64,000 nucleotides of DNA from Candidatus Nomurabacteria bacterium (GCA_020631905.1 JACKGQ010000001.1:165854-229853), one strand, 5' to 3'; shown: positions 52,620 to 62,774, numbered from the stretch's first letter. Numbers and translations: made by a program. Notes: generated by a model from the letters alone, not told the origin.

Positions 52620-52665
52620 AAATCTTTACTAATATTTTCAAGAAAGCAAAGCTTTCCATCTCACT

Positions 52666-52857
52666 CTTCTATTTTTGAAGAGACCAAAAACAGAAGCAAA
52701 AAAAGTCTTCCCAGCCACCCAAACATCCAGACTATCAAGCTTACAGCTCTTAAATCTGGTAACTTGCGGAACTTGCTGGCAAAGCCAGCTGCATACAGTC
52801 CTCGTTACCATACTTAAGAACTACAAGCTTGCTAATCTCGAGTTTGGGTGATGCTGG
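52666..52857. repeat. L element copy A: about 190-nt rod-like structured repeat (candidate ncRNA or ssDNA structure)
   Basis: Helices P1 CTTCTATTTTTG/CAAAAACAGAAG, P2 CCAGC-CACCCAAAC/GTTTGGGTG-AT-GCTGG, P2b CTTAA/TTAAG, P3 GGTAAC/GTTACC, P4 GCTGGC-AAA-GCCAGC. Conserved loops GCGGAACT, ATACAGTCCTCG and TTGCTAATC. Begins just after the stop of the HAD gene. Confidence 0.75.
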
Positions 52858-52915
52858 ATATACAAGACCGACAGACATCTAATATCCGAGTTCTAAGATC
52901 TATCTCCTATCAATA

Positions 52916-52975
52916 AACGAGAAAACCCCGAGCCCTGCGAGAGGAACTCGGGGTTCCTCGATCGAGGGGACGGGG
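52916..52975 (-). terminator. T element copy 1: conserved 60-nt GC-rich hairpin plus U-tract
   Basis: Reverse strand, directly after the TAG of ORF 52976-53272: CCCCGTCCCCTCGATCGAGGAACCCCGAGTTCCTCTCGCAGGGCTCGGGGTTTTCTCGTT. 60/60 identical to copies at 54724 and 55399. Confidence 0.8.
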
Positions 52976-53272
52976 CTAGTTGACAGCGTTGACGCCGTCG
53001 TCTGTCTGCGTGAAGCGATCTTCGGGACTGGCATCAGGAGCTTCCGCACGCGCCCGGGCTGCCGCAATCGCCATCTCGCCCGCACGGTTAAGTACAAGGT
53101 CGCAGAAAGCCATCACGATCTGGGCCAGGAACACGTCTTCGAGCTCGGTACCACCACTGACTGCCACTACCAGGTATGTGACCGGATCGTAGATCCCGCC
53201 GCGCCACGGATAGTAGCCATCGGCTACATTGAACATCATCGGGTAGCTCGCAAGCGCAGTGGAGCTATCCAT
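52976..53272 (-). CDS. GC-rich orphan protein (98 aa, acidic, soluble), cargo a
   Basis: Intact ORF with visibly higher G+C than its flanks. The stop abuts T copy 1. GGAAG RBS and an ATAATGTA -10-like box upstream. No recognised domain. Confidence 0.6.
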   Translation of the reverse strand: MDSSTALASYPMMFNVADGYYPWRGGIYDPVTYLVVAVSGGTELEDVFLAQIVMAFCDLVLNRAGEMAIAAARARAEAPDASPEDRFTQTDDGVNAVN

Positions 53273-53387
53273 TCGAGCTTCCGCTTATATAACATCTGCA
53301 TATATAGCACAATAGGATGGCTACATTATGCCGATTTTTGAGCCTAGATGTATAAAAATAAGCATTTTTGTGTTACTATCTGGCTAG

Positions 53388-54497
53388 ATGATAAATCGTC
53401 AAATCACCGACTCTATTCGGCAACGTTTAAATAAAGGTAAGGTAATTATCTTGGTCGGGGCGCGTCAGGTTGGCAAGACCACCCTGACCAACCAACTAAT
53501 CGCCGACTACCCCGCCGAACAGGTCTTCAGCATAACTGGCGATGACTTCGAAACTCAGCGTTTAACCAAAATGCCTGCCAGCGAGATTGAGGCTCTGATC
53601 GAGCCCTACACCTGTATCTTGCTTGACGAAGCTCATAAGGTTAACCGAATTGGCGATATTGTCAAAGCCCTAGTCGACAAATATGGCGACCAAAAACAGA
53701 TAATTCTAACTGGCAGTTCGACAATTGGTTTGGTCGACAAAACCAGTGAGCCACTGACTGGCCGCAAACGAGTTTTTGAGTTATATCCGCTCAGTACCAA
53801 CGAACTCGAGTTGTATGGTGAGGCTCTGCGTAGTCGTTTACCCGAGTTACTGACTTATGGTCTCTACCCAGAGGTGGTTAATGCATGCGATGAGATTGAT
53901 AAACGTGATGCAATCCTCGAACTGGCACGCAGCAGCCTCTACCGCGATGTGCTCGATGTAACCGGTGCTCGGGCTAGCGGCGACTTGGTTGCGCTGCTTC
54001 GCTTTCTTGCTCAGAGTATCGGCGAAACATTGTCGATCAACGAAATCAGTCTCAAGTTGAGTATTGATAGGCGGACGATCGATCGTTATATCGACCTGCT
54101 CGCCAAAAGTTTTATAGTTTTCCCACTTATGCCCTATTCGCGCAGCGACAGCAGCCTACGGCGGTCTTACAAGGTCTATTTTTGGGATGTGGGTGTACGT
54201 AACGCCATTTTGGAAGATTTTACTCCGCTCGAAGAGCGCAGCGACACCCAGGCTCTGTTCCAAAACTTTGTGATTGCCGAGCGCATGAAAAATGCTCATT
54301 ACCGGGGCGATCTAACTCATTATCACTTCTGGCGCAGTTACGACGGTGCCGAGGTCGATTTGGTCGAGATTCGCAACCAAGCAGTGCATGGCTTAAAGCT
54401 TAGCTACGACGGCCGCTATATGCGTGAGAGTAAGTTGTTTGATAAGCTCGAGCCAACCAGTTATAACGAAGTTACTCCAGACAATTTACAATTTTAA
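53388..54497 (+). CDS. AAA+ ATPase with C-terminal DUF4143-like domain
   Basis: 369 aa. Walker A GARQVGKTTL and Walker B ILLDEAHKV. The overall layout matches the widespread stand-alone ATPase family of this type. Confidence 0.7.
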   Translation: MINRQITDSIRQRLNKGKVIILVGARQVGKTTLTNQLIADYPAEQVFSITGDDFETQRLTKMPASEIEALIEPYTCILLDEAHKVNRIGDIVKALVDKYGDQKQIILTGSSTIGLVDKTSEPLTGRKRVFELYPLSTNELELYGEALRSRLPELLTYGLYPEVVNACDEIDKRDAILELARSSLYRDVLDVTGARASGDLVALLRFLAQSIGETLSINEISLKLSIDRRTIDRYIDLLAKSFIVFPLMPYSRSDSSLRRSYKVYFWDVGVRNAILEDFTPLEERSDTQALFQNFVIAERMKNAHYRGDLTHYHFWRSYDGAEVDLVEIRNQAVHGLKLSYDGRYMRESKLFDKLEPTSYNEVTPDNLQF

Positions 54498-54527
54498 TAG
54501 TTTCTAAAGCAAAGCTTTAGTTTTCAT

Positions 54528-54703
54528 TCTTACTTTTGGCGGGCAAAAGTAAGACAAAACCTCTCGGGTAATACCAAAAACATAACTAGCAAAAGCACTA
54601 GCAGTTAACCTGTTGTCTTGCGGAACTTGCTGGTATGCTGCCAGCTGCAAACAGTCCTCGACAACATGCTAGCTACTACCACTTTTGCTAATCAGTTTTT
54701 GTC
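54528..54703. repeat. L element copy B (most divergent)
   Basis: P1 TCTTACTTTTG/CAAAAGTAAGA, P2 GACAAAAC/GTTTTTGTC, P2b CTAGCA/TGCTAG, P3 GTTGTC/GACAAC, P4 GCTGG-TATGCTG-CCAGC. The same conserved loops are present: TTGCGGAACTT, TGCAAACAGTCCTC, TTGCTAATC. Confidence 0.75.
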
Positions 54704-54723
54704 AGACCCGATCATTATTTAGA

Positions 54724-62001: not shown

Positions 62002-62068
62002 AACAGGGCAATTATAACAGAAGTAATTAGATGTATCCTCTTTTGAAAGTAAAACATTAAATCTCATT

Positions 62069-62260
62069 CTTCTATTTTTGAATAGACCAAAAACAGAAGC
62101 AAAAAAGTCTTCTAGCCACTCCAGAACAAGAGGACTATCAACCCGAGCTTAGTAAAATCTGGTAGCCGCGGAACTCAGGCTAGTAAACTAGCCCTCAAAC
62201 AGTCCTCGCCACCATACTTTACTAACCACAGTTTGCTAATCTGTTCTGGAGAGATGCTGG
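62069..62260. repeat. L element copy C
   Basis: P1 as in copy A. P2 CTCCAGAAC/GTTCTGGAG, P2b TTAGTAAA/TTTACTAA, P3 GGTAGC/GCCACC (one A.C pair, which is G.U on the reverse strand), P4 GGCTAG-TAAA-CTAGCC. Loops CGCGGAACT, CAAACAGTCCTCG and TTGCTAATC. Confidence 0.75.
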
Positions 62261-62305
62261 ATTATTGTGACTGAGAGGTATTAGATTACGTGATAACAGG
62301 GGTAG

Positions 62306-62329
62306 AAAATGTTTCACGTGAAACATTTT
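62306..62329. repeat. Perfect 24-bp palindrome
   Basis: AAAATGTTTCAC|GTGAAACATTTT, centred on CACGTG, in the spacer between L copy C and T copy 4. Confidence 0.9.
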
Positions 62330-62425
62330 AACACACTCAAAATCGCTCTAATGCGTGAGTGTGCAGACATTTTCTATAACCACGTTTTTGTTTACGTATG
62401 AATTATAACATAAGCTTTTAGAAAT

Positions 62426-62485
62426 AACGAGAAAACCCCGAGCCCCTGAGAGGGCTCTAGGGCTCTCGATCAGAGGGTTACGGGG
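62426..62485 (-). terminator. T element copy 4 (diverged, structure retained)
   Basis: AACGAGAAAACCCCGAGCCCCTGAGAGGGCTCTAGGGCTCTCGATCAGAGGGTTACGGGG. It shares both ends with copies 1-3. The internal hairpin is changed to GAGCCC/GGGCTC. The U-tract is retained on the reverse strand. Confidence 0.65.
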
Positions 62486-62489
62486 CTAA

Positions 62490-62702
62490 TTAAGTTTGAG
62501 TGGTCGGGGGAGTTTTGATGCGCTTGTCGCCGCGATCCAGCCAGCACATCCGCTCGCCGCACGTGAGCGCCATGACGCTGAAACTGGGTAGGTACATGTA
62601 CCTCACGCCGAGGACGGCCACGTAAACGAGTACTTTTACCCACCAGGGGCCGTCGAAACTAGACGACAGTATGCTTGCCAACAAAATTGCCATAAAGGTC
62701 AT
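62490..62702 (-). CDS. Small orphan two-TM membrane protein (70 aa), cargo f
   Basis: AAGGAG RBS 6 nt before the ATG. Helices MAILLASILSSSF and WWVKVLVYVAVLGV. G+C is visibly above that of valS and tsaD. Confidence 0.55.
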   Translation of the reverse strand: MTFMAILLASILSSSFDGPWWVKVLVYVAVLGVRYMYLPSFSVMALTCGERMCWLDRGDKRIKTPPTTQT

Positions 62703-62774
62703 TGCAACTCCTTGTCTAAAGAACTAGCTCACTCGAACTCGCATTATTATATCATTATCTTAAGAATATGTCGA
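62703..62774 (-). promoter_or_regulatory. Promoter-like spacer of cargo f (GATATAAT -10, AAGGAG RBS)
   Basis: Fills the gap from the tsaD stop codon to the cargo f start exactly. Related to 55294-55398 (see that feature). Confidence 0.45.

Follow-up and report, generated by a model that had tools for sequence, protein, structure and literature searches.

The region from tsaD to an HTH-HAD gene in a Candidatus Nomurabacteria bacterium record (GCA_020631905.1 JACKGQ010000001.1:165854-229853) is, with a probability that we put at about 0.55, an accessory-gene hot spot in which one element, T, serves as a portable stop-and-terminator and probably also as a recombination handle, and which also holds copies of an unrelated and widespread hairpin element, L. 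The window, as used below, is the whole stretch of 64,000 nt from that record that was analysed; the locus studied occupies positions 52,620-62,774, and we treat the genome as one of Saccharibacteria, ~770 kb (about 0.77 Mb) in size. The hot spot has tsaD and the HTH-HAD gene at its ends and takes in valS and an AAA_14 gene between them; dnaA is about 30 kb away. Saccharibacteria genomes are tiny and gene gain in them is little understood. The locus offers one concrete pattern: genes of deviant composition lie between housekeeping genes, each with a native-looking promoter, T supplies the stop, and the content differs between sister species.

The open reading frames (ORFs) lodged in the gaps are referred to as cargo a, b, c and f and genes d and e. 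The four copies of T in the window are T1 to T4 and the three copies of L are L-A, L-B and L-C, while L001, L002 and so on up to L141 are labels of other contigs or loci. Positions are collected in Table 1.

The terminator element T and the genes in front of it

Four T copies were recovered by a repeat finder (as family D1), and a 15-mer taken from T occurs four times against 0.12 occurrences expected by chance. The predicted fold is one 54-nt three-tier hairpin, followed by the U-tract UUUUCUCGUU. T1 has a folding energy of -36.6 kcal/mol (z -3.6), T2 and T3 of about -34, and UUUUCUCGUU comes after all of them; a terminator scan also flags T, and compensatory changes are seen in 5/17 predicted pairs among six T variants. 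With its hairpin and U-tract T is a predicted extended intrinsic (Rho-independent) terminator. Like other Rho-independent terminators it is a G+C-rich hairpin with a U-tract at gene 3' ends. Unlike ordinary ones it is unusually long, owing to the three-tier stem, it is repeated identically behind unrelated genes, it overlaps stop codons, and it is kept as a sequence family across sister species.

The identical 60-nt cores of T1-T3 touch the stop codons of three unrelated ORFs, a, b and c. The stop codon is built into the 5' edge of T (YTAR-CCCCG), so any ORF that lies directly upstream of T gets a stop together with a terminator. In a relative (L009) T keeps this edge, as TTAA-CCCCG, with no ORF adjoining it, and the stop codon TAA of c belongs to that T sequence.

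An exact 20-mer of T was found in one contig only among 185,579 GTDB species genomes. This contig belongs to the sister metagenome-assembled genome (MAG) HKST-UBA75 and shows the same three-copy T spacing. T is absent from IMG/VR, except for one chance match inside the coding region of a Mu-like phage gene. Given these two results, T appears to be clade-specific and rare, confined to a small Saccharibacteria clade and to this neighbourhood. Searched with Rfam 15 at the gathering score, the window gave three tRNAs only, and its 52-63 kb part gave nothing at E <= 1, so neither T nor L has a match there.

The ORFs in front of T stand out by composition. Their GC is 0.55-0.60 and their G+C content at third codon positions (GC3) 0.56-0.72, against 0.44-0.53 and 0.47-0.56 in the neighbouring genes, and the spacers upstream of the cargo are at GC 0.35-0.38. 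All islands of at least 56% G+C and more than 600 nt lie at 54.7-59.2 kb of the window; outside that interval just four short stretches (300-550 nt) reach at least 56% G+C. The best sigma-70-like promoter match in the locus is the one upstream of f, and comparable ones precede c (56021-55994), b (55350-55323), d (56742-56714) and a (53354-53325).

An earlier note on this DNA, made from the sequence alone, had described four T and three L copies, a precise junction between ORFs and T, and cargo made up of orphans richer in G+C than their neighbours. The copies exist by repeat finding, alignment and folding, and the junction and the G+C contrast are as it said. Orphan status holds in part: nothing in Pfam, PHROG, NCBIfam or PADLOC matches a, b, c, d or f, and tblastn of a, b, c and the cargo of the relative L010 found nothing in phage or plasmid records, while d and the family of f have relatives in sister genomes and e is no orphan. 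An exhaustive HMMER search returned 193 homologues of e, mostly full-length at ~770 aa. The nearest (33% identity; L138 6001-8307) belongs to another Saccharibacteria-like genome, where groEL and sortase-type genes flank it; its GC3 is 0.75 against 0.39-0.50 in its neighbours, the region upstream is AT-rich, and its terminator is not T. A 27%-identical relative (L141 6001-8307) in a 30%-GC genome has a GC3 of 0.42 against 0.20-0.30. Since e homologues exceed their own neighbours in this way, G+C richness confined to the ORF is a recurrent trait of some gene families in these genomes. We also note that three unrelated genomes each have an e homologue whose G+C content exceeds that of its neighbours, and that the one in L141 adjoins a PspA/IM30 gene. 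An 833-aa ORF beside tsaD in the relative L011 was compared with e and is unrelated to it.

The only strong high-G+C signature is that of the L010 cargo, with a GC3 of 0.93. The first 200 nt of the same contig (L010 1-200) hold the last part of an ORF at 68% GC together with a G+C-rich terminator, and DNA of native composition follows directly, which makes this another high-G+C insertion in the clade. Only these two, the L010 cargo and the ORF fragment at the start of L010, look like recent imports from a high-G+C source. The actinobacterial host that the earlier note had suggested as a source of the cargo is a speculative donor. A non-coding stretch of ~150 nt downstream of d (window 56040-56222; L009 3360-3500) is conserved between the two genomes, with a GAUGAA...UUCAUC pairing and a terminator hairpin; no Rfam family matches it, and it may be a 3' untranslated region (3'-UTR) element or a small RNA.

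Syntenic contigs of relatives were reached via valS homologues, and the identities given here are those of valS: L009 (74%), L010 (73%), L135 and L136 (64%) and L011 and L012 (63%). Their synteny tables and sequences were used to examine the region as a hot spot. Both L011 and L012 read tsaD, 196 nt, valS, 5 nt, AAA_14, 56 nt, HTH-HAD, with all three gaps empty, and L135 and L136 vary in content between valS and HTH-HAD and have no T there. The gap between valS and AAA_14 in L009 holds a d homologue (67% identical), its terminator and then a T variant without an ORF (3513-3575), of which T2 is the positional orthologue. The gap between AAA_14 and HTH in the same contig holds a 65-aa f-like membrane ORF with a T variant, and its tsaD-valS gap is empty. 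The tsaD gap of L010 has a 136-aa membrane ORF (the GC3 0.93 cargo), then a T4-like T (6225-6282; the copy to which T4 is closest) and then a reverse-strand ORF; a further T-like terminator follows a native-composition gene 5 kb away.

The identity of d with the L009 ORF at the same place indicates that d was inherited within the clade; c, b and e are absent from L009, which has d in common with the window. Set against L009, c-T3-97 nt-b before T2 is a gain of the window, flanked by two identical T copies, and this c-T3-promoter-b-T2 block looks like a tandem insertion through T. Among close relatives cargo content is, on this comparison, polymorphic in front of a conserved T, in a cassette-like way. 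Both kinds of relative that the earlier note had thought worth seeking were thus found, those with empty gaps (L011, L012) and those with other content beside T variants (L009, L010).

The hairpin element L

The three L copies in the window align over about 230 nt, with ends that are only loosely similar, and the pattern CGAGGACTGTNTG-N(18-20)-AGTTCCGC occurs three times in the window against none expected. On the minus strand the fold of each copy is a rod-like hairpin of ~165 nt, with two small hairpins after it. For L-A, L-B and L-C the folding energies are -106.4, -84.4 and -80.4 kcal/mol (z -9.6, -6.6 and -5.4); the plus strand of L-A reaches -75.2 kcal/mol only.

T, cargo and L had been put forward in the earlier note as one module, and this did not hold. 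Aligned with L009, L010 and L011, all of which lack it, L-C is a clean insertion in the valS leader. What had been taken for a 165-nt spacer within the module of f, between T4 and L-C, proved in the same alignment to be conserved native intergenic sequence; it contains a parS-type palindrome whose central core TTTCACGTGAAA is conserved in L009, L010 and L011. Because native DNA separates L-C from T4, L is not part of the T-cargo unit. None of the relatives with T and cargo has an L, the covariance model described below detects L three times in the window and not once in eight loci of relatives, and L-family members elsewhere have unrelated neighbours. The words CGAGGA(A)C and CGAGTTCC, common to T and L, are complementary halves of one hairpin and uninformative.

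Beyond the window, the L core pattern is matched in three IMG/VR contigs, where it lies in the host flanks of prophages, and, among the matches listed, in over 120 metagenome contigs of many habitats (GC 0.36-0.67). Three family members rich in G+C had no relevant Rfam match, plasmid and phage records contained nothing similar to L by blastn, and a literature search for L core sequences returned chance primer matches only. The L family is, as judged from these matches, a cross-phylum and very widespread one that is absent from Rfam 15.

A covariance model (R1) was built from 61 non-redundant L copies. The consensus has a 6-nt 5' loop, GUYUGA, and an invariant helix made of C-G, G-C, a bulged A, G-C, G.U, A-U, C-G and U-A, which can be written CGAGGACU/AGUUCCG, with the bulged A and the G.U pair; the G.U wobble is kept in 113/118 copies. 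In the apical hairpin all five pairs covary, with 170 double-change cells against 56 +/- 5 after shuffling (0/500 shuffles reach this count) and a covariation score of 0.286 against 0.02-0.06 with the partners slid. The outer stem, whose internal-loop size varies between copies, was judged by flank-duplex z-scores, and the outer flanks are complementary at z < -3 in 48/72 non-redundant copies. A second hairpin type, UUUCUUUGG...CAAAGAAA, is found in proteobacterial and window copies alike. The sense strand is more stable than the antisense strand in 60/72 copies, a bias that comes partly from the shared core. With compensatory changes and strand-specific features the L family has the generic marks of a structured RNA, as far as sequence can tell. 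The invariant motif looks protein-binding-like, in what is a very widespread structured element.

Across 35 gaps that hold an L, 12 are convergent, 23 co-directional (11 with L in sense, 12 in antisense) and none divergent. The 150 ORFs flanking L copies show 198 Pfam families between them, none enriched, and include no transposase. In G+C-rich, proteobacterial-looking contigs L elements often come as head-to-head pairs 100-250 nt apart or as several within a few kb (L006 85-346, L032 974-1337, L125, L130), and the covariance model also finds a diverged extra L beside copies that fit the pattern (L005 10195-10310; L077 4122-4245).

We compared the L core with the hammerhead, the box C/D K-turn, SRP, RNase P and 6S, and likewise with the retron msd, attC and single-strand promoters or origins; none fits the invariant positions. 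A K-turn-like reading with tandem G.A pairs is only a guess. Closer parallels are intergenic repeats such as REP/BIME, ERIC, Correia/CREE, RUP and miniature inverted-repeat transposable elements (MITEs). Like these, L is an imperfect palindrome (~240 nt), intergenic and multi-copy; it is independent of the orientation of its neighbours, avoids divergent promoter gaps and has short flanking repeats at two of the three window copies. Unlike them, it spans a GC of 0.36-0.67 and many habitats, with stems that have drifted to each host's composition. Conserved terminal inverted repeats that match a transposase-bearing autonomous insertion sequence (IS), which mark a MITE, are not found in L, and no cognate transposase or RAYT was seen in the window or among the 150 ORFs neighbouring family members.

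Possible origins of the arrangement

We favour an account in which accessory genes of deviant (higher) G+C content would have gathered in the intergenic gaps of the tsaD-valS-AAA_14-HTH-HAD region, with T doubling as a portable homology patch. DNA entering by natural transformation and carrying promoter, ORF and T would recombine with a resident T through a Campbell-type single crossover or, alternatively, through a double crossover using T and a conserved flanking gene. A single crossover at T would yield T-promoter-cargo-T, and this matches T3-97 nt-b-T2 with its two identical T copies; recombination at T would also explain why relatives have different cargo before a conserved T. L would have spread in a transposition-like manner, as MITEs or REPs do, with three insertions in this lineage only, in gaps at gene 3' ends. 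It would have come to lie beside T because T marks the 3' ends of cargo and because cargo on the opposite strand made the gaps convergent. Were recombination through T to be correct, it would be a simple, integrase-free way of domesticating foreign ORFs.

Minimal mobile elements (MMEs) of Neisseria are cassettes swapped between conserved flanking genes by transformation and homologous recombination. The locus resembles them in its conserved flanks (tsaD, valS, HTH-HAD) with differing whole-gene content and in having no mobility gene, features that mark it, on present comparisons, as a hot spot of the minimal mobile element type. It is unlike them in the terminator repeat shared by the cargo and in the T-cargo-T tandems. 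A further likeness is that it belongs to a naturally competent group, natural competence of Saccharibacteria having been published (PMC10633639).

Several observations weigh against the account that we favour. Recombination through T has one tandem arrangement and three identical copies to speak for it; a-T1 and f-T4 have a single T each and no tandem signature, and 60 nt of homology is little for recombination that depends on RecA. Excised or circular forms, hybrid T copies and within-species polymorphism were not seen, and the contigs that bear a or c all have the same arrangement. The comparison with close relatives covers three loci only. As to L, its 7-bp flanking repeats are individually weak (p about 0.05 for L-A and about 0.06 for L-C), and L-B has none; unlike a classical MITE it is invariant at the apex, in the internal bulged helix and loop, while stems and termini vary. 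All three copies also lie within 150 nt downstream of a T, which a preference for gaps at gene 3' ends explains only partly.

The earlier note had read the locus as a site-specific platform for gene cassettes. In such an integron-like system T would be an attC-like folded site for a recombinase encoded elsewhere, at which promoter-ORF-T units are inserted and excised. Much of the anatomy is of this kind: small unrelated ORFs end exactly at T, or inside it as in many attC sites; T is an imperfect palindrome whose structure is kept while its inner sequence varies; c-T3-b-T2 forms a short two-unit array with identical T copies; and relatives have different or no cargo before a conserved T at one site. 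The cargo polymorphism, the precise junction and the two-unit c-T3-97 nt-b-T2 block of that proposal therefore stand. The T-cargo units are all on one strand, and apart from the contiguous c-T3-b-T2 they are single and split by native genes. The ends of T, however, carry no RYYYAAC/GTTRRRY (R''/R') boxes: the 5' flanks are CAAC-TAG, CAAC-TAA, GATTAA and AATTAG, the 3' flanks GTTTATT, GTTTCTA, GTTATAT and GTTATTT, and none fits both attC boxes. As the earlier note had remarked, no recombinase is in view, and Pfam finds no recombinase, integrase or transposase domain among the window ORFs of at least 110 aa (64 kb); IntI and attI are likewise missing from the window. Each cargo has its own AT-rich promoter in place of a common Pc, d and e have their own terminators, and T has a U-tract, as a plain terminator does. 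There are very few T copies in one clade, namely four that all lie within 10 kb, with no T in other GTDB species genomes except the sister MAG. Taken together, this makes an integron-like mechanism rather improbable to us.

Another possibility is that nothing moved, T and the genes being old residents of the clade that were duplicated locally, with ORFs diverged or replaced by insertions and deletions and a G+C content that comes with the gene families. The conserved place of d in the window and L009 is in keeping with this, as are the f-like ORFs with T variants in three genomes, the G+C-rich nearest homologue of e behind its own AT-rich region, and a divergence of T variants between relatives that is roughly that of host genes. 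Yet T1-T3 are 100% identical over 60 nt while a, b and c are unrelated (soluble acidic, multi-pass membrane and soluble), the gaps in L011 and L012 are empty, c, b and e are missing from the d-bearing L009, and the composition of the L010 cargo points to a recent high-G+C source; we consider purely vertical descent unlikely. L could also be a functional partner of the cargo, as a small RNA or 3'-UTR element that stabilises, silences or regulates the mRNA (for example an antitoxin-like RNA for small membrane proteins). All three copies lie 10-146 nt downstream of a T on the cargo strand, folds of the minus strand are more stable than those of the plus strand by 16-19 kcal/mol, and the G.U wobble is nearly always retained. 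Against this, T and cargo occur in relatives with no L, T3 has no L, parS-bearing native DNA separates T4 from L-C in the valS leader, and family members elsewhere have unrelated neighbours and no fixed orientation, which leaves such a partnership with little probability. Finally, the G+C-rich pieces might have been joined at the repeated T by an assembly or binning error, as the earlier note had allowed, and short-read contigs do often break at T. Independent assemblies, however, span a-T1-L-A-HAD (L002), AAA14-L-B-T2-b-T3-c (L001 and L004) and L-C-valS-e-d-c (L008). Because all joins except tsaD-f-T4 are reproduced by assemblies from several other samples and by the GTDB MAG contig, we regard a chimeric contig as very nearly out of the question.

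Returning to the hot spot with a portable T and an unrelated L, a wider and doubtful extension is that the L core may define an uncurated class of structured RNA (or single-stranded DNA), ranging from Patescibacteria to Proteobacteria, which some conserved factor, cellular or mobile, would recognise, and that T may be the handle of a terminator-anchored cassette system, by which foreign ORFs are slotted into an origin-proximal expression hot spot without an integrase in competent Saccharibacteria.

Features and surroundings of the locus

Table 1. Features of the locus, with positions counted from the first nucleotide of the window
Feature	Position	Strand	Description
T1	52916..52975	-	60-nt extended hairpin with U-tract; directly after the TAG stop of cargo a (52976-78)
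T2	54724..54783	-	identical to T1; abuts the TAA stop of cargo b (54784-86)
T3	55399..55458	-	identical to T1 and T2; abuts the TAA stop of cargo c (55459-61); then the promoter of b
T4	62426..62485	-	diverged, 60% identity over 75 nt, same three-tier hairpin; 4 nt after the stop of f
L-A	52636..52878	-	structured hairpin; flanked by 7-bp direct repeat CTAATAT (52629-35, 52879-85)
L-B	54502..54713	-	structured hairpin between T2 and the stop of the AAA_14 gene; no clear flanking repeat
L-C	62033..62279	-	structured hairpin in the valS leader; flanked by ATTAGAT (62026-32, 62280-86)
Cargo a	52976..53272	-	98-aa acidic soluble ORF; GC3 0.68; no family match
Cargo b	54784..55293	-	169-aa multi-pass membrane ORF; GC3 0.70; no family match
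Cargo c	55459..55932	-	157-aa soluble ORF; absent from L009 at this position
Gene d	56223..56471	-	82 aa as called; own terminator; 67% identity with the ORF that L009 has at this place
Gene e	56836..59163	-	775 aa: TPM domain, membrane segment, long helical region; own terminator ~56770-56800
Cargo f	62490..62702	-	70-aa membrane ORF of a small GP(W/F)W family, also beside T variants in L009 and L010
Best sigma-70-like promoter match	62746..62774	-	upstream of f; 11/12 positions, TG-extended
AAA_14/DUF4143 ATPase	53388..54497	+	full-length match to PADLOC candidate defence family PDC-S01, E = 1.8e-105
parS-type perfect palindrome TGTTTCACGTGAAACA	62310..62325	.	native tsaD-valS intergenic DNA between T4 and L-C

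The AAA_14 gene is itself variable, some relatives having it and others not, and its match to PDC-S01 fits a hot spot of accessory or defence genes. The palindrome TGTTTCACGTGAAACA we take, by its consensus, to be parS; near dnaA (22.5 kb), such a parS-type palindrome is a putative origin-proximal centromere site. The dnaA-dnaN-recF genes lie at 22.5-26.3 kb of the window.

Further away, ~13 kb of the window (3690-16870; GC 0.42) contain no ORF of at least 160 aa whatever the frame, even with read-through of any single stop codon allowed, and neither tandem repeats nor an Rfam match, which is unusual for a genome of ~0.77 Mb; a giant gene in decay could account for this, or else a large region without coding function. 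A type IV secretion system (T4SS)-like cluster at 27059-45455 encodes a TraG/VirB4-type ATPase, PrgI, six T4SS-pilin ORFs and a 1032-aa multi-domain cell-wall hydrolase, and a ComFC-like competence gene lies at 46152-46814.

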